This document shows positions 402 to 32,240 of a DNA stretch of 40,989 nucleotides, piece by piece. The translations under genes were made by a program, and so were the position numbers. Origin of the DNA: a virus. Lineage: Duplodnaviria; Caudoviricetes. The stretch spans positions 1-40,989 of the IMG/VR virus record IMGVR_UViG_3300044960_000205, one strand, 5' to 3'. The notes beneath the pieces are model-generated. The model worked only from the letters and a program-made list of their open reading frames with translations. It was not told where the DNA came from and made no database searches. Position 1 is the stretch's first letter. The number at the start of each line of letters is the position of its first letter.

Positions 402-636
402 GGCATGGCTCGGCAGGGCATGGCAAGGCGCGGCAAGGCCGGGCGTGGCGCGGCTCGGCTGGGCCTGGCGCGGCAAGGCGAGGCTAGGGCTGGGCGAGGC
501 GGGGCTGGGCGAGGCGAGGCGTGGCCTGGCGAGGCTGGGCACAGCAAGGCACGGCAAGGCAAGGCAAGGCATGGCAAGGGCTGCAAAGCAGCGTCAGACG
601 CCTTGGCAACAGGACGTCTGGCGATGCGAAAGCATC
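402..636 (+). ncRNA. Putative guide RNA 1: 35 GGC-NN pentamers (402-577) plus a three-hairpin tail
   Basis: Strict 5-nt period with constant GGC and variable NN (one AGC variant, one extra G at 487). Hairpins: GCTGC-AAA-GCAGC (580-592), 593-622 with a GCAA tetraloop, and GATGC-GAAA-GCATC (623-636). Confidence 0.8.
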
Positions 637-640
637 AAAC

Positions 641-806
641 GTGGCGTGGCATGGCGGGGCAAGGCGTGGCGGGGCTCGGCGTGGCCGTGCAAGGCCGGGC
701 TCGGCTAGGCATGGCGTGGCGAGGCTGGGCGAGGCAGGGCCTGGCTAGGCAGGGCAAGGCAGGGTGTAGTGGATGGCCATCAGGCCATCCGGTGCGCCTT
801 GCACCG
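641..806 (+). ncRNA. Putative guide RNA 2: 25 GGY-NN pentamers (643-767) plus a two-hairpin tail
   Basis: Same 5-nt period (one TGC variant, last unit GGT). Hairpins: GGATGGCC-ATCA-GGCCATCC (771-790) and GGTGC-GCCTT-GCACC (791-805). Confidence 0.8.
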
Positions 807-826
807 ACAACACACATGGAGGCATT

Positions 827-1396
827 ATGAAAACAGTCACCGTTGAAATTCGTGGCACGTCTCCGTTGCTGATTCATCGTTTCGGTGAACAAAACGAAGT
901 CGAACAGGCGACCAGAAGGGTCATCGTCGAGACAGTGAAAGACCCGCGCGAAGAGGCACGAAAAGCGGCCTACATCGCGGATGACGGTACCTTCTACTTC
1001 TCTGCGGCTGCGATTCCGAACGCCATGAGTACGGTCGGAAGTAACCACAAGATGAAAGGGTCTAGAAAATCGCTCCGCTTCATCGTGCCGAGCGCGGTGC
1101 GCGTGACATCGGACACCATCACGATTCTGAACGGAGCAGGGCCGGCAAAGGATTTTGAGGTCGACGGCCGTCCCGTCACCATCCCTGCGACAAAAGGTCG
1201 TGTCATGCGTTACCGCCCGCGGTTCAACGACTGGGGCGCCGTGTTCGATCTCGTCATCAACGACAACCTGTTGTCTGTCGAAACAGCTCATCAACTGCTC
1301 GTGGAGGCCGGCGAGCAGGTCGGCGTCGGCGATTTTCGACCTGAGAAGCGCGGCCCGTTCGGCTGCTTTCGCGTCACGAAGTTTGAGGAGCAGTAA
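827..1396 (+). CDS. Stand-alone RAMP/Cas7-like RNA-binding protein (Vipr-like), 189 aa
   Basis: GGAGG RBS at 818-822 before ATG 827. N-terminal strand VTVEIRGTSPLLIH, the segment FYFSAAAIPNAM and a C-terminal glycine-rich loop GVGDFRPEKRGPFGCF resemble RAMP motifs. Immediately follows the pentamer arrays. Confidence 0.75.
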   Translation: MKTVTVEIRGTSPLLIHRFGEQNEVEQATRRVIVETVKDPREEARKAAYIADDGTFYFSAAAIPNAMSTVGSNHKMKGSRKSLRFIVPSAVRVTSDTITILNGAGPAKDFEVDGRPVTIPATKGRVMRYRPRFNDWGAVFDLVINDNLLSVETAHQLLVEAGEQVGVGDFRPEKRGPFGCFRVTKFEEQ

Positions 1397-1407
1397 GGAG
1401 TAAAACC

Positions 1408-1593
1408 ATGCTAATCAGAACCGAAAATGGAAGAACAAAACACATCGAGCCAGCTCCCCACATTAAGCGCGTGCCGTCCAAGCGCGAGGCAGAGGCTGCC
1501 TATGCGCAGATCGTGGCGGCGCTACCGGAGCAGCGAGCCGATGAACTCAGTGACCAGATCGAGATCGTGAGGGACTTCTTATGGAGCCGCTGA
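1408..1593 (+). CDS. Hypothetical protein, 61 aa
   Basis: AAGGAG RBS upstream; directly follows the RAMP-like gene. Confidence 0.7.
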   Translation: MLIRTENGRTKHIEPAPHIKRVPSKREAEAAYAQIVAALPEQRADELSDQIEIVRDFLWSR

Positions 1594-6615: not shown

Positions 6616-8529
6616 TTAAAACTTATTCAAAAATGGGCCAAGCAAGGTATCCATTGGGATTCGGTTGTTATTAACCCATGCGCCTGATAGCCCCGCGGCA
6701 GTTGTGCTGTTGTTCGGAACACAGAATACTCGACCATCTGGCAAAAGAACGCCTCCAACGAATGCGCCGGAACCTGGGTAGGTTCCATTTGGTGTTGATA
6801 AGGTATTCGTAGATGGATCGTAGATACGGGCACTTGTGCTGTTGTTCGAAACACAGAATACTCGACCATCTGGCAAAAGAACGCCTCCAACGAATGCGCC
6901 GGAACCTGGGTAGAGTCCGTTTGGTGTTGAGAATGTGTCCGTAGATGGATCGTAGATACGGGCACTTGTGCTGCTGTGTGGAACACAGAATACTCGACCA
7001 TCTGGCAAAAGAACGCCTCCAGCGAATGCGCCGGAACCTGGGTAGACTCCAGATGGTGTTGATAATGTGTCCGTAGATGGATTGTAGATACGGGCACTTG
7101 TGCTGCTGTGTGGAACACAGAATACTCGACCATCTGGCAAAAGAACGCCGTCGTAGAATGCGCCGGAACCTGGGTAGGTTCCACTAAAAGTAATTCTTGT
7201 GTCTTTCAGGGGGATTCCTGGATTCGCGGATATGGCTTTTGTTAGCGTTTTTAGAATTGTTTTCCTTGCATCTGGGTTTCCTGGATTATAAGTTGTCCAC
7301 CCCGTAACTTGTAGAGCACTCGTGTATCGTACCCGGGGGGAAGCTACTCCACGTTCTCCAATAGGTTGGACCAATTTTGGTGCAGTACTCCATACACCAG
7401 CAGTTGTTTGGATTGAGCGCAACAACCCAACTACACGGTACGCAACATCAATTCGTTCCGACGCGGAGTAAATGACACCTAAAGAATCTGAACTTGTGTT
7501 GATGGCGGTAGTTGAAATAAGTTCCATTTCATCCAACCACTCACCACTTGGGGAGCATACCACCGCAAGCTCTATTATCCCTGCGTTATTAATCGCAAGA
7601 ACATAGATGTTTGATTCTGCGTTGTTGATTGTGCCAAGAGTTGCACCGGACGGAACAGTAAGCGAAATCTGTGAATTGATAGCTATAGTTACTGGACTAC
7701 CATCAGTCAGCGTGGTGCTTCGGAAAGAAATAGTACATGGATTGAGTTTAATTGTGAGAGAATTTGAAGCAACAGACGCTTCAATGGAAATACTTGAAAT
7801 TCCAACACCAAGCGTCCCCCTCGCCGTCGCCGCGTCGGGGTCGTCGAGGAGGGTCTTGGCGAAGTTTGAGACGCCAAGGTTGGTCAGCGCACCGCTCGCA
7901 GTGGTGGCACCCGTTCCCCCGCTGGAGATGGCAAGCGGGAGGTTCAGGCTGTCTACAGCGGCCTGCGCCGCCGCAGCAGAGTTCGCGGCATTGCTCGCCG
8001 AGTTGGCCGCGCTGGTGGCAGAGGCTGCGGCGCTGGTTGCGGAAGTTGCCGCGTTGGAGGCTGAGCTGGATGCGTTTGACGCAGCCTGGAAGATGTCGTT
8101 GATGAGTTGGTCTGGCGATGTGCTGCTGGAGATTTGTACTTTCACTGCCCGGTTGACCTTCTCGGCCAGTTGTTGGGCCAAGATGGTTAGACGATCGAGT
8201 GCGCTGTTGATTATCTGCGGGTAAAACCCGCCCTGGTTGGTCAGGTCGAGCGGTTGCAGACTGGCCACCTTGCTCGTGATGGTGAGCTTGTAGCCTGTCT
8301 GCAACGCGGCCGGTAGAGTGACGGTTCCGCCTGGTGACGTGTCCTGGTTGGGATTCAGGCTGACGCTGTAGTCCGAGCCGAGCGTGAGTTCGGTTTCTAC
8401 TCCCTGCGGGTTAGTACGGACAACGAGAACGTCAGACGTTGAGAAAACCTTGAAATCAAACGGGAAATTCGTGGTAGAATCGTTTCCCAGGAACGGCCCC
8501 GCCTTGCGAATTTCTGACGAGATGGTCAT
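6616..8529 (-). CDS. Tail fibre / receptor-binding protein with C-terminal Kelch-like repeats
   Basis: T7-gp17-like anchor (FPFDFKVF...ALDRLTILAQQL), Ala/Ser stalk, GGTGATTA motif and 44-aa repeats. Confidence 0.88.
   Translation of the reverse strand: MTISSEIRKAGPFLGNDSTTNFPFDFKVFSTSDVLVVRTNPQGVETELTLGSDYSVSLNPNQDTSPGGTVTLPAALQTGYKLTITSKVASLQPLDLTNQGGFYPQIINSALDRLTILAQQLAEKVNRAVKVQISSSTSPDQLINDIFQAASNASSSASNAATSATSAAASATSAANSASNAANSAAAAQAAVDSLNLPLAISSGGTGATTASGALTNLGVSNFAKTLLDDPDAATARGTLGVGISSISIEASVASNSLTIKLNPCTISFRSTTLTDGSPVTIAINSQISLTVPSGATLGTINNAESNIYVLAINNAGIIELAVVCSPSGEWLDEMELISTTAINTSSDSLGVIYSASERIDVAYRVVGLLRSIQTTAGVWSTAPKLVQPIGERGVASPRVRYTSALQVTGWTTYNPGNPDARKTILKTLTKAISANPGIPLKDTRITFSGTYPGSGAFYDGVLLPDGRVFCVPHSSTSARIYNPSTDTLSTPSGVYPGSGAFAGGVLLPDGRVFCVPHSSTSARIYDPSTDTFSTPNGLYPGSGAFVGGVLLPDGRVFCVSNNSTSARIYDPSTNTLSTPNGTYPGSGAFVGGVLLPDGRVFCVPNNSTTAAGLSGAWVNNNRIPMDTLLGPFLNKF
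6701..7183 (-). repeat. About 3.7 near-identical 132-bp (44-aa) tandem repeats in the tail fibre tip
   Basis: ACAGAATACTCGACCATCTGGCAAAAGAACGCC recurs at 6721, 6853, 6985 and 7117. Confidence 0.95.
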
Positions 8530-8572: not shown

Positions 8573-11500
8573 TCAGCGCCTTTCACGAAACCCAAACACC
8601 ACGGCCGCCGGGTTTTCTGTTTCGCCTTCCGACAGCGCTTGAATGCCCGTCACTGTGCGGTTGATCTGGGCGGCCGGCAGCCCGAACAAGCTCCCGGAAA
8701 GATTGATGGCCGCCTTGCGGAAGGCATCATCAAGCTCACCCTGTGCGGCCTGCACGGTGAACTTGTACGTGTCGCCGAACAACCGCAGCCCAGCCGGGCC
8801 TTGGTAGCCGAACCCCTGTCCGGCCATGGCCTCTACGGCGGGGACGACCTCGCGAACGAAGGCAATGCCGCCGAGCGGATAGCTGATTTGCTCCGCTAGG
8901 AACTTCTTCAGCTTTTCCTCATCATCGTCACCAGAGTCGCCGGGGACAATCAGTTCCTTGGTCAGCATGTTCACGAGCACCGGCACGGTGAAGACCATCA
9001 CCATGTCCATGAGGCGCACGCCGGCACTGCGCCCGGTTTTGATGGACAGGTAAGCCAGGTTCGTGCCGGTGTTTTGGAAGTTGAAGAACGTCGTGAAAAG
9101 CTTCGCCATCGCTCCTCCGCGCTCGATGGCGGACAGATCGACGATTTCGCCGCCGCCCTGGGAGTCGCGCACCACCTGGTCGGCGATGGCGCGGGCTTCC
9201 TCTTCTGCGATTGCCGGGTTGTCGGCGAACGCTTTCTCGTAGCCCGCGCGCCAGGAAATGGTGTCGGCGATGAGCTGCGTACGGATGATGCCCCACATCA
9301 TCCACGGTGCCATGCGCTCGCGTAAGCCTTCCACGCGGACGGCGTTCCTGATCTCGTTGAGTTCCCGGAAGCGGGTGCGTGCGCGGTTACGCATGAAGGC
9401 GGACGCTTCCATCATTTCCTGCACGGCTCGCTTTGGATTGGCTGCGAAGTACAACAAGCCGCGCCACACCCACTTCGCGCCTTCCAAGCCACCGCCAAGC
9501 CGGGTAACCGTGTTCGCGATGCCGAATGGTTGCTGTAGCCAGCTCGTGACGTTGAGCCCCAATCCGGCTAGAGTGACGTTCTTGCGGATGAATGCGCTTG
9601 CCGCCTCGAACCCATCGGCCACGCGCTGCGATCCAATGATAATGTCAGACACCCACCGCCGCACCTGACGCAGCTCCTCATCGCCATAGTGCTCGCGAAT
9701 GGCGTCCTGAATGCGCTTCGAGCGCAGCAACCTGCCTGCGTCAATGGCATAGCGCCGGAAGGCCAGGTCGTGGATCACCATGTCGAGGCCGGAATAGAGG
9801 GAGTCCAGCGTGAGTAGGAGCGGCCGGCCCTTGACCTCCTGAAGCCGCTGCTTCGTGAAAGTCTGTCTGGTTGTGGCGTTGGCGCGCACGGCGGCCTTGG
9901 CCATGTCCAGTTCTTGCAGTTCTTCCAGCTCCGCAGCCCGGGTGTTGAGTGCAGGATCGTAAACGATGGGATAGTAACCCCCGCGTAGGGTGACGACTTC
10001 GCCGTCTTTGGATCGGATGGAAATTGGCCTCGGCTGCACCCACTCCGGTTCTTTGCCCTTCGTCTCGCGCTCCAACTCGGCGATCTTCGGCCGGTAGGAG
10101 TCGAGCAAGTCCCAAATCTGCTGCGCGGCCTCAAGCTCGGCCTTGGTGAACGATCCGTCCAAGGCCCGCACAACGTCTTCGAGGGACAGCCCGCGGTATC
10201 CGCCCACCCCGCCGGAGAGAAGACGCTGCGTATTCCCTTCGTTGCCTAAGTTGAGCAGGATGGAAAAGCGGGCCTCCCAGTTAAGGCTCGTGCCCAGGGC
10301 GGGATAGGCCCTTCCCTTGCCGACGCGGTCGGATGCCGGCACGTTCTTGAGTACCGGCTTCAGGATAGCGTTGAGCTTTTCCGTCGCCTCTGCGCGCATA
10401 GCGACCTGCACCTCTTCTGCCTCGTTGGCCGGCATGACGAAATACCGCCACATCGGCCCGCCGTCTTTTCCGCCATCCATGACCAGCGCACGGATGCCCA
10501 TTCGGATATGGTCGGCACCGAACCGCCGCAACGCCTTCGCCACGCGGCTCGCGATGTCCGCCCTGGTTGGGCGCGCTTTTCCGGAGGTTCGTGCGTTGCT
10601 TCGAATTGACTCGGCGATTTCCTCCTTAACCTCATCCAGGGCCTTTTCCGTCTTCGCGGTGAGCAGCCTGTTCTTGAGCCGGCCAAGGTGCTCGATCTGA
10701 CGCACGGTGTCCACCAGGCCCCTGAACTGCTCCAGGGTCATGTTCTTGTAGCTCGTTTTGGCCGAGCGGTCGATGTAATCGGCCAGGAGCTTTGCGCGCT
10801 CAGCCTCGTCGGCGTATATGTACTCCCCATCCTCGTTGACCATCGTCGTTTCGGCGATGTAACGCTGCCGATCTTCCGGGCTGAGCAGGGTCTCGGCGAT
10901 CTCCGGCACTTCCCCCTCGGCCAGGCGGGCCATAACCCAGGCGCGCAGGGATGTCGTCTTGTCGATGTCGGCCGGGCTTTGCTTGCGCAGATCGTACTTG
11001 ACGAGTAGGGCGCGAATCTGGTTCAAGTAATCCGCGTCGATACCCTTGATGTCGCCGTCGAATTTTTTGAGATAGCGCAGCCCTTTCTCCACCTCGGCCA
11101 GCGCTTCGTGGGCCGCCCGAGCAGCGTAGAGGTTGATGAGCTGGTTGCGCTTCTCCGCCGCCGCCAGATTTACGTTGCCGGCTTTGAAGGCCTCCAGCGA
11201 TGCCTTCGCTGCCTTGACTTCGGCCGCGGCAAAACGCCCAGGCGAGATGGCGCGCACCTTGAGACGGGCGATCGTTTCCGCCGCATACGCCTTTGCCGCC
11301 TGAATGAGCACCTTTGGCTTTCCTATCGCTTTCAGCAAGGCGTTGACTTCTGTAGCCACGAAGCGCGCCCGTATGTCGTTGTGGACGGCTTTGTCCGCCG
11401 CCTTTTCAATAGCTTCTGGGCTGGCCAGGTCGCCGTAGCGTTCCAACATCCGAACGTCGGTGAGCGCTTCGATGGCCTCTTTTGGCGGTTCCGCCGCCGC

Positions 11501-14500
11501 CAGGGCGCGCGCCAGCTCGTCGCCGGACGAGAATCCGAACAGCTCGGCCACAGTATCCGGATGCAGACCGCCTTTTGCGGCGGTCATGCGGCGCGCTTTC
11601 AGCGTATCGACTACCTCGGTTGGTAGGTCCATGGCGAGCAAGCTGTTGATGTCCAAGCGGCCGGCGCCAAGGGCCTGGGGGTTTACTACCTGGTCTCCTG
11701 CCCGTTCGCTGGCGGTTGTGTAGTCATAGGAGGCAGAATACTGCGTGTCGCCCCGCAACTCCGCAAAGAACTTTTCCTCGAACTCGTGGAGGTCCCACTT
11801 ACCATATTCGTCCAGGGTAAGGTAGCCGTATTTGGCCAGCAGCTCGGCCATTGCGTTGATGGACTTGCCACCCTCGCGACGCAACACGTGCTTGCCGAAG
11901 ACGGGCATGGGAATGCGCTCTTTCGGATCAAGCCCCCATTCGGCCTGTACGGCTTCTCTGTCCAAGCCGCCAAGTTTGGCGATGGCGGTGAACAGGGAGT
12001 CCTTGGCCTCGTCTACGGCGTTGGGACTCCGCGTGCGCTGTTCACGCGGCCCGATCTTGTCTTCGCTGGACAGCTTGCCGGTCAGAAATTGCCAGGCCTG
12101 GTAGATCGGCCGGCTCATAACTTCCCGGCGAATGCCGATCCGCACCTCCGCCCGTTTTTCCTTGGCCTCGCGTTGTAGCCGCTTGATGGCTCGGCTGCGT
12201 GCATTGTGCAGCCACCGCATGTCGCGCAGGCTGCGGGTCTGTAGCTCCTCGATGGCCGCAGCGGTGGCCTCCACGCCAAGCGCCTGGTAGGCTGCGAACT
12301 CCTCCGGCGTCATTCCTGCCTGGTCGGGGGAGGCGAACAGCGGCATCATGCTGCGACCTTGCTCGGCGAGCTGAATCTGTTCGTTGGTGGCGAGCATCCG
12401 GTCGAATACTCCGCGCACCTCGTCGGTCAGCTCCACATTGAGCGCCTTGAGGCTTCTATAGACGTGGAGCAACCAGGCGCGGAAGCGCTGGAACAGGCTT
12501 TGCAGTTCAATGCTCGGTGCCTTGCCCTCGAACAGGTAGGCCTCAAAGCCGCGCGCAAACCGCTCGTGATAGGAGCGCTTTTCCTCGAAGTTCAGGGCGT
12601 ACCATTCTTCCAGGCTCTTCAGCCCAAACCAGCGCAGAATTGCGTCCGTGTCCTCCAGCCACTGCCGGCTACCGGGCGCGAGGCCGGCTTCGCCGAAGAT
12701 TTCGGCCTCCTTCTTGATCCGCGCGGCGAGGTCGAAATGCAGCTCCAGGAAGAAATGCCCGGCCTCGTGCAGGAAGGTTGACAGGTCGGCATTCTTGAGC
12801 AGGGTGACCGTGAGGCTCGACGGGTCGAACATTCCGCGCGCCCCACCGCCACCCTGACGCAGGATGTTCGGATTGTCCGGGTCGAACGTGCCGACGTTGC
12901 CGATGGCGGATTTGATCTGCGCAGCGTCGAAAGCCAGATACGTATCACCCTCCACATCAGGTGCGACAATCCCGTCGTAGCCGGCTCGTCTTGCAAGCGC
13001 AGAGATATCCCCAAGGACTGTAGAGTACACGTTGGTCATTGCTAGCGCGTTTTTTGTTTTCTTTTCCTCTTCGATGTACTCGTACGTGCTTTTCCACTGC
13101 TCGTCGCTTATCGGCGGCAAGTTGCGCTCAGCGCGGGACAGATCGACCATCCTACGCCATTCGTCACCAGAGACAGTAGCTGGATTTAGCGGATTCTTCA
13201 GCGACAAGAATACCGGGTATATGGCGGGCGCTGAACGAGCACGCCTACCTGCCGGCGCTTCCGCAAAATACCCGGCCCATTGCGGAGACGCAGTAAAGTA
13301 GAAGCCCTTTCCGATGAACCCAGCATCGCGCAGTCCCGTCTTTTTGAACTCCGAAAACGACGGGGTGGCCGTCCCGTGATACACCACCATCGGCTCGCCG
13401 GTGTCCGGATCGACTACCTTCGACGCGTTGGCTGGGTCATTCTCCCAATCCCCGAACCACGCCTTGAACTCCGGCGTGCGCACCTGTACCCACTGCCCAT
13501 AGGTAAGTTTCGTCTTTCCTTCTGCCCTGGCTTTCTCGTGGGCTTCGCGTCCGCCGTACTTTTGTTCGGTTTCAACGAACGACTTGCTCTGATACAGAAC
13601 GGCGGAGCCGTCGTCCAGAAAACGCAAAGCTCTGAAGCGCTTCGGCGCCTCAACACGGTAGTCCGCGCGCCCGTCGGCAAACTCGTCGTCCAGGATTAAG
13701 AGTTCCGGCCTAACCCGCACAGGGATGGCCACCTCACCGTATCCTGTCGTCGTGTCCTTGGTCGTTGTGAAGTACAGGTCTGGTTCAGCAGCAGAACGCA
13801 ACATCCCTTCTTTACGGATTCGTTCGGCCGCTTCTCTGCTGGTGTGGTGGTACACCGTGACCGTGCCGTCAGCGTTGAGCGGTAACCCAGTAATTGGGTC
13901 GGTGCGGTCTGTTTTTGGGACCTCCCCTTGGTCGAGGACGAACTCCGGCGCAGAAACACTTTGCGCCGCCACCTTGAGCGGATACCGCTGGAAAAGCTCC
14001 TCCGGCGTCGTGCCAAGCCGCGCTGCGGCCACGGCGAAGTAATTGCCAATCAGGGATGCGTAGGCATCGTTCACGGACGGCGTAAAGCGCCCGGTAGCGT
14101 CGAGCTGCGCCTTGATCTGTTCGCGTACCCTTTCTGCGGACTGCTTGAAAGTCTCGTCGCCCTGCTTCTCAGCGATGGCGCGCTCGAACTCTGCGCGCAG
14201 TTCCTGGGCGGCCGGCCCTTGCAAGTAGGCTTTCGCCTCCGCCCGGCTGAAACCTTCGGGATCGGTCTTGAGATGATCGAGCAGGCTCTGCGCATACTCC
14301 GTCGGCGCGATCCTGGCGGTATACTCCTCCACCGGAATGGCGATCTGCCCGCCGGTCTGTACTGCCTCTGTAAGCTGCTCCGCGACAGACGGCGAGACGG
14401 CTGCCACTTGCTCCGCCACACCGCTCTGCATGAGCGCGTTGGCATCGATGTAGACCTGCTGTACAGGGCCGTCTTCCGCCGCTTTGGCGATGAACTGCTC

Positions 14501-15733
14501 GAAGGTTTCCGGGTCGCGCTGAAGCACCTTGCTCGCGGCGGCAAGCTTGTTGAGGTTTTCGATGAGTTCCGCGTCTTTCTGCGCGCGCTGGGCGTTTTCC
14601 AAGGCGCGCTGATAGTTACCTGGCACCTCGACAATGGCGGTTGGTATTTCGGCCACTGCCTCCATAAGGATGTCCCCCGGCTTGTATTCGCCGGTTGCCA
14701 GTTGCGCGCCGGCCTCCCCCGCCGCGCCGCCAGCGGCCTGTATTCCGAGTTCACCCGCCACACGCCCGCCGACGCTGGTAGCGGTGGGCTTTGCTCTGGC
14801 CAGCAACCGACCAGCCAAGCCCGCGGTCAGGGCGTCAAAGACGGCTATCGGGATGCCGCGCTTGAGGGCTTTCTCCCGCGCGGCCTCCATAAACGCCTGG
14901 TCGTTCAGGGCGGCGAGAATCGCCTGCGCGTCGGTGCCGTCCACGCCCTTCTCGCCCATCACGTCTTGAAGGGTGCTGCCGTACTCTACCGCGTAGCTGC
15001 CCAAGGCTGCGCCAAGCGCCGTGCCAAACGGGCTGAACACGGAACCGCTTGCCGCGCCCACCAAGGACGGCACGCTGGCGCCAAGGGATTGCAACGTGGT
15101 TTCCAGTACGGCACGCGGGTTGGCGATAACCTCGGTGAGCGCTTCGCCCATGGTTTTTGCACCACTGATATCCTGCATGCCCCGGGCGATGTTCTCCGGC
15201 ACCGGATAACGCTCAATCTCGCGCTGTTGTTGGGCCAAGCGCACAGCCAACTCAACCGAAGGGTCATAGTCGATGCCGTGCGCCGCAGCCGCGGCCGCCT
15301 GCCGCCGTTCCAGCCCCTTGAAGACGCCCATCTGGTCCAACAACAAAGTCAGCCCACGGCGGCCTTGGGCAAGGCCGCGACGCACCGGCTCGATGATGCC
15401 GCCTAAAAGGCTGCGCTCGATGCCGGATAAGGTTTCCACGTCGTCGTGGGCGATCTTGGCTTTCTCGATGTCTGCCAGCAGGGCGGCCGTGGTCGGCGAT
15501 ACCTTCGCTAAAGAATCGAAGTCAACGGCTCCGATTTCGGCCTGCCTCTTCATTTCCTTCGGCTGGCCGAGCACGGTTTCGACCGGCACGCCCGTTTTGC
15601 GCGCAACGCGCAGCGCATTGGCGTATTCGTCCGGGTCTGTAGACTGCGCTGATACTACGCCGACCTTGGCCTGTGTGGAAAGGCTGTCGGTCAGGACCGC
15701 ATCGACTGCAGCAGCGATATCGTTTTCGTTCAC
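8573..15733 (-). CDS. Giant internal virion (ejection) polyvalent protein with two ADP-ribosyltransferase-like domains and an HExxH motif
   Basis: About 2,386 aa; probable GTG start overlapping the upstream stop. Motifs YHHTS..LYFT, VYHGT..GFYFT..VFLSLKNP..GYDG..QIKSA and FLHEAGH. Confidence 0.8.
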   Translation of the reverse strand: MNENDIAAAVDAVLTDSLSTQAKVGVVSAQSTDPDEYANALRVARKTGVPVETVLGQPKEMKRQAEIGAVDFDSLAKVSPTTAALLADIEKAKIAHDDVETLSGIERSLLGGIIEPVRRGLAQGRRGLTLLLDQMGVFKGLERRQAAAAAAHGIDYDPSVELAVRLAQQQREIERYPVPENIARGMQDISGAKTMGEALTEVIANPRAVLETTLQSLGASVPSLVGAASGSVFSPFGTALGAALGSYAVEYGSTLQDVMGEKGVDGTDAQAILAALNDQAFMEAAREKALKRGIPIAVFDALTAGLAGRLLARAKPTATSVGGRVAGELGIQAAGGAAGEAGAQLATGEYKPGDILMEAVAEIPTAIVEVPGNYQRALENAQRAQKDAELIENLNKLAAASKVLQRDPETFEQFIAKAAEDGPVQQVYIDANALMQSGVAEQVAAVSPSVAEQLTEAVQTGGQIAIPVEEYTARIAPTEYAQSLLDHLKTDPEGFSRAEAKAYLQGPAAQELRAEFERAIAEKQGDETFKQSAERVREQIKAQLDATGRFTPSVNDAYASLIGNYFAVAAARLGTTPEELFQRYPLKVAAQSVSAPEFVLDQGEVPKTDRTDPITGLPLNADGTVTVYHHTSREAAERIRKEGMLRSAAEPDLYFTTTKDTTTGYGEVAIPVRVRPELLILDDEFADGRADYRVEAPKRFRALRFLDDGSAVLYQSKSFVETEQKYGGREAHEKARAEGKTKLTYGQWVQVRTPEFKAWFGDWENDPANASKVVDPDTGEPMVVYHGTATPSFSEFKKTGLRDAGFIGKGFYFTASPQWAGYFAEAPAGRRARSAPAIYPVFLSLKNPLNPATVSGDEWRRMVDLSRAERNLPPISDEQWKSTYEYIEEEKKTKNALAMTNVYSTVLGDISALARRAGYDGIVAPDVEGDTYLAFDAAQIKSAIGNVGTFDPDNPNILRQGGGGARGMFDPSSLTVTLLKNADLSTFLHEAGHFFLELHFDLAARIKKEAEIFGEAGLAPGSRQWLEDTDAILRWFGLKSLEEWYALNFEEKRSYHERFARGFEAYLFEGKAPSIELQSLFQRFRAWLLHVYRSLKALNVELTDEVRGVFDRMLATNEQIQLAEQGRSMMPLFASPDQAGMTPEEFAAYQALGVEATAAAIEELQTRSLRDMRWLHNARSRAIKRLQREAKEKRAEVRIGIRREVMSRPIYQAWQFLTGKLSSEDKIGPREQRTRSPNAVDEAKDSLFTAIAKLGGLDREAVQAEWGLDPKERIPMPVFGKHVLRREGGKSINAMAELLAKYGYLTLDEYGKWDLHEFEEKFFAELRGDTQYSASYDYTTASERAGDQVVNPQALGAGRLDINSLLAMDLPTEVVDTLKARRMTAAKGGLHPDTVAELFGFSSGDELARALAAAEPPKEAIEALTDVRMLERYGDLASPEAIEKAADKAVHNDIRARFVATEVNALLKAIGKPKVLIQAAKAYAAETIARLKVRAISPGRFAAAEVKAAKASLEAFKAGNVNLAAAEKRNQLINLYAARAAHEALAEVEKGLRYLKKFDGDIKGIDADYLNQIRALLVKYDLRKQSPADIDKTTSLRAWVMARLAEGEVPEIAETLLSPEDRQRYIAETTMVNEDGEYIYADEAERAKLLADYIDRSAKTSYKNMTLEQFRGLVDTVRQIEHLGRLKNRLLTAKTEKALDEVKEEIAESIRSNARTSGKARPTRADIASRVAKALRRFGADHIRMGIRALVMDGGKDGGPMWRYFVMPANEAEEVQVAMRAEATEKLNAILKPVLKNVPASDRVGKGRAYPALGTSLNWEARFSILLNLGNEGNTQRLLSGGVGGYRGLSLEDVVRALDGSFTKAELEAAQQIWDLLDSYRPKIAELERETKGKEPEWVQPRPISIRSKDGEVVTLRGGYYPIVYDPALNTRAAELEELQELDMAKAAVRANATTRQTFTKQRLQEVKGRPLLLTLDSLYSGLDMVIHDLAFRRYAIDAGRLLRSKRIQDAIREHYGDEELRQVRRWVSDIIIGSQRVADGFEAASAFIRKNVTLAGLGLNVTSWLQQPFGIANTVTRLGGGLEGAKWVWRGLLYFAANPKRAVQEMMEASAFMRNRARTRFRELNEIRNAVRVEGLRERMAPWMMWGIIRTQLIADTISWRAGYEKAFADNPAIAEEEARAIADQVVRDSQGGGEIVDLSAIERGGAMAKLFTTFFNFQNTGTNLAYLSIKTGRSAGVRLMDMVMVFTVPVLVNMLTKELIVPGDSGDDDEEKLKKFLAEQISYPLGGIAFVREVVPAVEAMAGQGFGYQGPAGLRLFGDTYKFTVQAAQGELDDAFRKAAINLSGSLFGLPAAQINRTVTGIQALSEGETENPAAVVFGFRERR

Positions 15734-17904
15734 GGTTTCTTCGCCATTTGAAGTTGCCAATACGCGAGAAGGATTTGGGCGTCTGTCGGGCTATCCACGC
15801 CACGGCGCTTATACGCTTCCTTGATTGCCTTCCTCGTCGCGCTGTCGATATCGCCCACCTTCATCGTCAGCATGGGGCCTGACGAGTCGGAGAAAAACCC
15901 GCGGAATGTCGCGTTCTTTGCGAACAAGGCATCAAGGTGTTGCGCGACTTCAGCGTCCGTGAACTTCCGTCCAGCTTCGCGTTGCGCAGCGTAGAAGTAC
16001 TGATTGACAAACTGGCGGATCGCGCCGACGCGCGCAGCGTCTTTGCCGCCGTTGTCCTTCGGCGTGGGGTCGATGCCGATCATGCGCAGCCGGTTGGTGA
16101 GTTCCTGGTTTATGGCTTGGGTGTTCAGGTCGCCGGGGCCGGCATTTCCTTGCGATTTCCCGAGCAGTTTCGCGCGCTCGTTCGCAAAGTGCTTGAAGTC
16201 GGCTTCAGAAAGCGAGGAACGCAGCTTGTAGAACTCCGCGTCGCTCATGCCGGCCAGCGCTTCCGGCTTGCCGGCGAGTCTGGCATAGAGCCACAAGTCT
16301 GTCGTGTCTTCGCCCTTCGCGATCTTGCGGGCAAAATCGATGAGGTTGTCGATTTCCTTCGGCGGCACCGCGGCACGGATACTGGCGGGTAGCGACGCGA
16401 AGCTACCACCGTTTTCAAGGATGGCGCGCATGGCCGTCGCCACGGCCTCGTCTTCCTTTTGTTTGATGGCCTTTGTCTGCTCGTTGTACAGCCGTTCCGC
16501 CACTTCTCTGGCCGCCTTGTAGCGGAACGGGTTGTCCCTCAAGCGCGGGTCAGCGCGCAGCATTTCGTCGATCTCGGCAAACGTCGGCCGGCTTGGGACG
16601 CCCTGTCCGGCTTCGAAGGCGCGCATGTTCTTCGTAACGTAATCGCGAGTCTCCTGCGGCAAAAAATCAAGCCACGTCTGCGCCCGGCCGTCCGGACCTT
16701 TCTCTGCCGACTTTGCGGCCTGTTCGGCCCGTTTGATCGCCTCGGCAAGGCGTCCTGGGCCTGCGTTGTAAGCGGCATAGGCTTTGGCTAGGTCGCCGCC
16801 GTTCTGACGCAACATTTCCTGGAAATAGGCAAGCCCAAGGGCCTTGTTGTACTCTGGGTCGTTTCGGTAGCGGTTTTCGTCCCAAGGCAGCCCAGCCAGT
16901 TTCGCGGCCTCTTTCGCCGTTTCCGGCATGACCTGCGCGATGCCGACGGCCCCCTTCGGGGAAGCAAGCGGGCTTCCATCCGGCGCAAACTGGCGCCCGC
17001 CGGACTCCGCGCTAATCAGGATGTTAAACGCGCGGTCGAGTTCGTTCGGCTGAATCCTTGGCTGCGCCTTCTGCAACGCTTCCTGGGCGGCCGTCATAGC
17101 GACGGTGGCGTCCACAGCCTTAGTGATGTGCCCCTGGACCGTAAGGCGGTCCGCCATATCCATCTGCTCGCCGTACCTCTTCAGGTAGGTGTCTGCGTAG
17201 AGTAAATCGTTGTTCTCCAAGGCAGCCATCAGCGCCTCTTTGTGCGCCCGGCTGGTGAGCTTGAGGACGGCGGCCTCTTGCCACTCCGCGGATTTGCCGA
17301 GTAGCTGCGCTTGGCGGTAAGTCTCGGCCTTGATGCGCTCTATGGCTTTGTCGATGACCTCTGGGTTATTCCAGTTGAGGGCGATTTCCTTCATCGCCGT
17401 GCTCTGCACGCCCTCCGCAACGGACAGCCCGTAGGTCGTGTACTCGCTCGCCATGTGCTGCAGCGCTTGGCTAAGGAACGATGTCCGGATGCTGTTCGCG
17501 TGCGCAACGAACATCTGGCGCTGCGCGTCGTTCGCCAGTGACGCGGCCGCGTCTTCTATTCTCTTCGAGAGTTGTTCTACGTACTCATCCGCCAGCGGCT
17601 TGCCGCTGGGACGCTCCAGCGCGTCGCGGCCCCTGAAGCGCTTGAAGCCGACCTCCGGATCGTAGGTCAGACGCAAAGCCTCTTCCTTGACGCGGTTCAG
17701 TGCATCGTTCACGCGGAGCTGGTCCGCCTGCTGCTGCATGTCGGCGGCGATTCGACCGATATCGGCGCTTGCGTTTTGCAACGCCCGGCCCGTTTGTCGC
17801 GCCTGCTCTCCAGCAACATCCGGCATGGATGGCAGCTCTATGCCGGCGCGGGGAAGCGTGCCTTGTGCTACTTGAGGTTCGTCATAAGTTGGAACGCGGG
17901 GCAT
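15730..17904 (-). CDS. Internal virion protein with lytic transglycosylase (SLT) domain
   Basis: AESGG, SPKGAVGIAQVMPETA, AAYNAGPG and ETRDYV. Confidence 0.88.
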   Translation of the reverse strand: MPRVPTYDEPQVAQGTLPRAGIELPSMPDVAGEQARQTGRALQNASADIGRIAADMQQQADQLRVNDALNRVKEEALRLTYDPEVGFKRFRGRDALERPSGKPLADEYVEQLSKRIEDAAASLANDAQRQMFVAHANSIRTSFLSQALQHMASEYTTYGLSVAEGVQSTAMKEIALNWNNPEVIDKAIERIKAETYRQAQLLGKSAEWQEAAVLKLTSRAHKEALMAALENNDLLYADTYLKRYGEQMDMADRLTVQGHITKAVDATVAMTAAQEALQKAQPRIQPNELDRAFNILISAESGGRQFAPDGSPLASPKGAVGIAQVMPETAKEAAKLAGLPWDENRYRNDPEYNKALGLAYFQEMLRQNGGDLAKAYAAYNAGPGRLAEAIKRAEQAAKSAEKGPDGRAQTWLDFLPQETRDYVTKNMRAFEAGQGVPSRPTFAEIDEMLRADPRLRDNPFRYKAAREVAERLYNEQTKAIKQKEDEAVATAMRAILENGGSFASLPASIRAAVPPKEIDNLIDFARKIAKGEDTTDLWLYARLAGKPEALAGMSDAEFYKLRSSLSEADFKHFANERAKLLGKSQGNAGPGDLNTQAINQELTNRLRMIGIDPTPKDNGGKDAARVGAIRQFVNQYFYAAQREAGRKFTDAEVAQHLDALFAKNATFRGFFSDSSGPMLTMKVGDIDSATRKAIKEAYKRRGVDSPTDAQILLAYWQLQMAKKP

Positions 17905-32044: not shown

Positions 32045-32240
32045 CATAAACGCAACTTATGGCCCCATAAAAACGTTTAATGGCTGCGCCCGACATAAGC
32101 ACAATTTATGGCCCCATAAAAACGTTTAATGGCTGCGCCCGACATAAGCACAATTTATGGCCCCATAAAAACGTTTAATGGCTGCGCCCGACATAAACGT
32201 AACTTATGGCCCCATAAAAACATTTCATGGCGACGCCCCC
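32045..32240. repeat. Four tandem 49-bp AT-rich repeats, each with two CATAA-N7-T(T/A/C)ATG palindromic boxes
   Basis: Units start at 32045, 32094, 32143 and 32192. Confidence 0.95.

Follow-up and report, generated by a model that had tools for sequence, protein, structure and literature searches.

The VIPR locus and its protein

The window analyzed here is an entire virus genome of 40,989 bases, estimated to be 94% complete. Pfam matches identified virion genes of the podovirus type, VRR-NUC and SNF2 genes and a DNA polymerase A end. No tyrosine integrase and no CRISPR-like array was found in this 94% complete genome, and none of the 41 large ORFs scanned had a Pfam match to a cas gene. Near one end lies a gene for a RAMP-fold protein, vipr, preceded by two tracts of GGY-NN pentamers, each with a predicted structured tail (Table 1).

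Table 1. Features of the VIPR locus, in window positions.
Feature	Position	Strand	Description
Tract 1	402..577	+	Runs of 17 and 18 units separated by one extra G
Tract 1 tail, three hairpins (predicted)	580..636	+	z -5.6
Tract 2, units 1-23	643..757	+	Candidate vrRNA guide of GGY-NN pentamers
Tract 2, units 3-20	653..742	+	18 dinucleotides fitting alpA codons G-L-S-R-S-T-I-Y-D/E-R-L-R-T-D-P-T-F-P, with two rU:dG pairs
Tract 2 3' tail, hairpin (predicted)	760..801	+	z -4.4; takes in NN of units 24-25
vipr	827..1396	+	189 aa, RAMP fold
61-aa ORF	1408..1593	+	3' of vipr; possible accessory (vap) gene

The Vipr protein matched the SUSP1 Vipr structure 36pp_D with an E-value of 2.4e-7 in a single-sequence search and of 1.6e-13 with a 28-sequence profile. 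The best folds for its predicted model (pLDDT 80) were Cmr/Csm3 RAMPs (Z 11.1, rmsd 3.6, 156 residues aligned), and homology and model together indicated a RAMP homolog with an RRM core, thumb and G-loop. Residues H17, R130, D169, F170 and R171 aligned with SUSP1 residues H17, R138, D177, W178 and R179, which are named as the GGY-reading residues in the structure paper (10.64898/2026.04.26.720927). In addition, a GGY tract was located within 3 kb of the vipr homolog in all 29 viral loci compared. By the definition given in 10.64898/2026.04.26.720920, the locus is a VIPR system.

One relative, L001, has a Vipr 92% identical to that of the window, different flanking genes and unrelated NN strings. 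Its tail-vipr-61-aa cassette (L001 2810-3770, in genome G004) follows a RecT-like gene, named by eye from its translation, in a phage with long-tail genes. The presence of the cassette in such a phage suggests that it moves between unrelated phages and that its guides are swapped. The small ORF downstream of vipr has a 63% identical counterpart at the same place in L001, alone among the 29 loci, and another in L137, which has no tract. It had no Pfam, PHROG or Atlas match; it is a possible vap gene, of a kind that VIPR systems typically but not always have.

The two repeat tracts

Tract 1 is likely two staggered guides. A 1-nt register shift follows its unit 17, like that in the staggered arrays of known VIPR systems (fig. 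S18), and its last units are A-rich. The staggering is of another type in loci L010-L019, where the arrays upstream of vipr have 9-17 units and are separated by register shifts of 2 nt that fall at a GGTAC(AT/GC) motif. No targets were found for tract 1 or for the L001 guide.

Tract 2 (643-767) comprises 25 pentamers in one register, of which 23 begin with GGC, unit 10 with TGC and unit 25 with GGT. Re-parsing the tract returned exactly the NN string that an earlier, sequence-only reading had written, and the same codons when it was reverse-complemented with one base skipped after each pair. The window sequence is present in hot-spring and microbial-mat runs, none of those listed being RNA runs, from which it may itself derive. 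Contigs of source-type hot-spring runs covered positions 223-2100 with 0 differences, a result that excludes a local assembly slip only. Tract 1 aside, no further GGY run of at least 5 units was found in the window. The predicted tail stem begins at 760 and has the NN of units 24-25 (AG and GT) inside it, so the guide extends over units 1-23 at most and the last two units belong to the tail, which corrects the earlier reading on this point. L001 has kept this tail; judged by eye in this single relative, one of the pair changes is compensatory and two are one-sided. Rfam returned 0 matches, and no sigma-70 site was found. In runs X1 and X2, the tracts alone (positions 425-705) aligned at 85-90% with several further contigs from this sample, so more GGY-NN arrays exist in the community. 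Together with the adjoining vipr gene, the anatomy of tract 2 indicates that it is almost certainly a VIPR guide.

A guide predicted to read the AlpA family

According to the VIPR papers, one Vipr binds per repeat with a 1-nt skip, and the outcome is transcriptional silencing. Vipr polymerizes on the GGY units, the NN bases pair with a target in which each third base is flipped out, and transcription is repressed on either strand (10.64898/2026.04.26.720920; 10.64898/2026.04.26.720927). The sequence-only reading proposed that tract 2 is aimed at an AlpA/excisionase-like gene. To compare this proposal with natural sequences, we used a seed pattern of nine units (STIY, five free codons, DPTFP) that was chosen with AlpA in mind. 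It had 2 viral, 13 metagenome and 8 GTDB matches, of which 14 of 23 were in-frame AlpA or HTH_17 genes. The other nine were not alpA-like and were dropped (2 of the 13 from metagenomes and 7 of the 8 from GTDB). All nine distinct proteins tested from the seed matches had a match to PF05930 or PF12728 (the AlpA and HTH_17 Pfam families).

The family alignment used for scoring consisted of 129 ungapped rows from 148 representatives. Against it, the nine units outside the seed gave a P of about 1e-3 with Watson-Crick pairs and of 9e-5 when rU:dG pairs were counted; the middle five units alone, which had not been used in naming the family, gave P 0.019. Units 3-20 scored 38.9 bits against the AlpA/HTH_17 subfamily profile, a value inflated by the seed pattern and by a profile chosen with AlpA in mind, compared with 16.0 bits for the best of 54 other tracts and a maximum of 20.9 bits in 5000 shuffles. 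The profile fitted no tract other than tract 2. If every possible subfamily profile is roughly allowed for, the Gumbel P of 1.4e-9 becomes an E that may be as high as about 0.05.

Skips of 0, 2 or 3 nt gave 18-22/36 in 28 alpA loci. The best natural matches have a G at both positions for which the earlier reading had assumed an rU:dG wobble. That reading saw no alpA gene in this genome, and a PF05930 search of the sequence, which is 94% complete, likewise found no match. Its further proposal, that the skipped base falls on the codon wobble position, agrees with the codon register seen here; the mechanism attached to it, in which synonymous escape is defeated and the system serves against satellites, had already been published for VIPR. 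The guide reading, the 1-nt skip, the codon register and the AlpA/excisionase class of target all held up in these tests, and the target of the guide is very probably an alpA-family gene.

Natural alpA genes closest to the guide

The search for individual genes used a contiguous pattern of units 3-16, which accepted G as well as A at each A and tolerated up to 3 mismatches, in 519 genomes, from three families reached via relatives of the phage lysozyme and one Burkholderiales family. The pattern had a single match, which was an alpA gene (L122, in genome G909), and a reversed control pattern had 2 matches in the same 519 genomes. There were no matches in subsets of 401, 52 and 2 of these genomes, and a family-leaning pattern returned only G909 again (1/401 genomes). 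In the predicted frame L122 reads GLARSTIYDRLRNDPAFP, with 29/36 Watson-Crick pairs, four G:T pairs and three mismatches, or 33/36 with the G:T pairs counted. Of the 8 bases in the four units that the pattern did not cover, 7 were pairable.

A second gene, the alpA of a Pseudomonas lambdoid prophage (L030; locus L049), also reached 29/36. At first and second codon positions L122 and L030 agree in 28/36 cases, and at third positions in only 3/18, so the guide is as close to each of them as they are to each other, and the two together cover 33/36 of the guide. Four other relatives of L122 in its order and seven viral relatives scored 19-25/36. The best matches in three sets of proteins were 27/36 (120 proteins), 29/36 (148) and 28/36 (a further set). 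L122 scored 75.2 bits against PF05930, and L030 and L031 scored 54.6 and 54.8 bits, all above the cut-off of 21.

The best natural alpA genes lie beside integrases, primase/helicase or Rep genes. The island that carries L122 (L123) starts just after mnmE and contains an integrase, an ORF, AlpA, HTH_39, HTH_36 and DUF5681 before the contig ends about 4 kb on. In this type of island alpA comes first in a series of genes on one strand, a Rep-like gene among them. The gene order, as far as the contig shows it, is that of an integrase-AlpA-Rep island, possibly a phage satellite. One source assigned the L122 protein to a Methylococcaceae MAG. We consider L122 and L030 to be homologs of the predicted target. 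In another genome (G568), an integrase-AlpA island (L097) has the same Y-x5-x-P-x-F-P spacing, 20/36 and no guide match; prophage lysozymes in that genome are 79-82% identical to that of the window.

Searches for an exact target and the limits of pairing

The pattern given by the sequence-only reading, whole or in parts, had no exact site in the metagenome, GTDB or viral collections. The 18-unit wobble pattern had 0 exact sites in metagenomes, STIY-D/E-R..DPTFP had 0 in GTDB, and LSRSTIY-D/E-R-L/F had 0 in viral contigs, as did a pattern leaning towards L122. The Pseudomonas alpA had no match at 80% in three hot-spring runs, which is not evidence of absence.

We also used the full-length score described in 10.64898/2026.10.15.759431, in which at least 80% of NN positions must match with a 1-nt skip. 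The best score for units 1-23 was 32/46 (70%), below that cut; units 3-20 reached 29/36 (80.6%), and did so only by trimming. The score of 32/46 was above that of 1000 shuffled guides on the L122 contig (maximum 29), a contig picked for holding the match. Within the window itself the best site was 25/46, indicating no self-targeting. Units 21-25 matched 0-3 of 10 bases in the DNA matches, units 21-23 among them matching poorly, even though the tail-side subunits are the first to engage in the SUSP1 structures (10.64898/2026.04.26.720927). The text of that paper does not address G:U tolerance. The locus bears on three open points: guides of more than 16 units, G:U tolerance and the need for tail-side pairing.

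Alternative explanations

It is unlikely, in our judgment, that the guide is real and the AlpA reading a chance, post hoc fit, the true target being some other, unsampled sequence. No site better than 29/36 was found, and the E of up to about 0.05 leaves some room for such a fit. Matches over 12 units with 3 mismatches do arise by chance: in a calibration on 64 genomes, a set that included the L122 match, two tract 1 patterns of this kind had matches in 3/64 and 1/64 genomes, antisense to a heme O synthase-like gene (named by eye from its translation) and in an unrelated frame. However, these matches lay outside plausible targets and did not extend, whereas L122 extended, in a gene and frame predicted beforehand. 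The tests on free positions (P 1e-3 to 9e-5) also argue against chance.

A little less likely again is a guide that once matched alpA exactly but is now weak or dead after drift, having undergone two C-to-T changes, at its G and R codons. Both persistent mismatches are a guide T opposite a target G at conserved residues (G in 83/129 and R in 60/129 family rows), and units 21-23 match nothing. Against decay, the scaffold is intact with 24 of 25 GGY units, vipr is intact with its key residues, and the mismatches may be tolerated, with U reading both A and G. The unmatched 3' units can also be viewed differently. Among homolog tracts, the NN was A-first in 102/204 of the last four units and in 179/568 of the rest, in counts that include related, non-independent tracts. 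This hints at a non-reading linker at the 3' end, and not at decay.

It is less probable still that processing yields two shorter guides, each of about 9-12 units, or that only part of the tract pairs, such that an 18-codon match overstates what one complex reads. The published vrRNAs have 9-16 repeats (10.64898/2026.04.26.720920) and unit 10 has a degenerate TGC lead. Yet the two halves align, with no gap between them, to neighboring codons in a single gene, and tracts of 20-36 units made up 11 of the 52 distinct homolog tracts.

That the repeats encode a low-complexity protein is close to negligible: one 141-codon frame (405-830) is open across both tracts, its stop overlapping the vipr start (ATGA), but the period of 5 with free NN, the structured tails, the linkage to vipr in 29/29 loci and the unrelated NN strings beside a 92% identical Vipr all argue against it. 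A frame of the same phase is open through the tail in L001 (2803-2985), and the open frame may be due to chance or may be a leader that couples translation.

Proposed mechanism

We consider it probable that tract 2 is a guide aimed at the alpA of a rival element. The tract would be transcribed and processed into a guide RNA beside vipr, and units 3-20 would base-pair with the alpA coding strand of an integrated competitor at two positions in each codon, G:U pairs presumably being tolerated. According to PMC10803314, alpA is necessary and sufficient for excision of PICMI satellites. Silencing of alpA by this phage, which shows no integrase, would stop excision and replication of the rival element and keep it in the host chromosome, and a roadblock at alpA in islands of the L122 type, where it comes first in a same-strand series, would likely also cut expression of downstream replication genes. 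The element would somewhat more likely be a satellite-like island than a full prophage.

Such a guide would mean that VIPR, here in a distant Vipr clade, acts against satellites not only through the recombinase but also through AlpA, the switch for excision. More speculatively, and on balance doubtfully, there may be a clade of VIPR phages with extra-long guides (18 or more paired units) that place U opposite conserved G and so read an entire alpA subfamily instead of a single target. If true, this would amount to a broad-spectrum lock-down of satellites and prophages, with the tail-side units as a non-reading linker.

Comparison with known systems

The VIPR system, its code, the wobble argument and its use against satellites are already published. 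In common with the systems of 720920 and 720927 (SUSP1 Vipr, 36pp), the locus has a Vipr of RAMP fold whose G-loop and thumb residues match, GGY/NN tracts adjoining vipr with a structured 3' tail, a 1-nt skip on codon position 3 and no self target. In contrast to those systems, its Vipr is of a distant clade, from a podovirus-like hot-spring phage, and there is no recognizable vap. The reading units number 17-23 compared with a typical 9-16, and the predicted tail is a simple long hairpin.

According to 10.64898/2026.10.15.759431, the VIPR of SUSP1 immobilizes a satellite in the chromosome via its recombinase. With that system and its F5 satellites the window shares an integrase-less phage, a wobble-aligned guide and, as predicted, an integrated competitor kept in the chromosome. 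The target in SUSP1 is the excision recombinase, with a measured effect, whereas here it is the AlpA switch gene and is predicted only. Compared with the AlpA proteins (PF05930/PF12728) of PICMI, PICI and P4-like satellites and of prophages (PMC10803314), the best matches to the guide score above the PF05930 cut-off, but the subfamily that the guide fits is one with Y-x5-D-P-T-F-P spacing. No paper joining vrRNA and AlpA was found, although the published target tables (data S3) and fig. S15 may list such targets; neither AlpA nor excisionase occurs in the supplement PDF of 720920 or in the main text of 759431.

Relatives of the phage and other features

The lysozyme of the phage (3454-3924) is 85% identical to that of Acidithiobacillus caldus phage AcaML1 and 77% identical to that of a Ralstonia phage. 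Genes 76-82% identical to it were present in 7 of 400 Gammaproteobacteria genomes, from several families, and the structural DNA of the phage matched none of five lysozyme-bearing genomes tested. Unlike the lysozyme, the capsid is nearest to those of Limnohabitans and Caulobacter phages (64-67%). Elsewhere in the window, positions 8573-15760 encode a large polyvalent virion protein of 2395 aa that contains LPD22 and ART-PolyVal domains, and a 132-bp repeat is present in 3.7 copies (6697-7183) within the ORF at 6616-8529. An AT-rich 49-bp repeat in four copies (32045-32238) possibly represents origin iterons.
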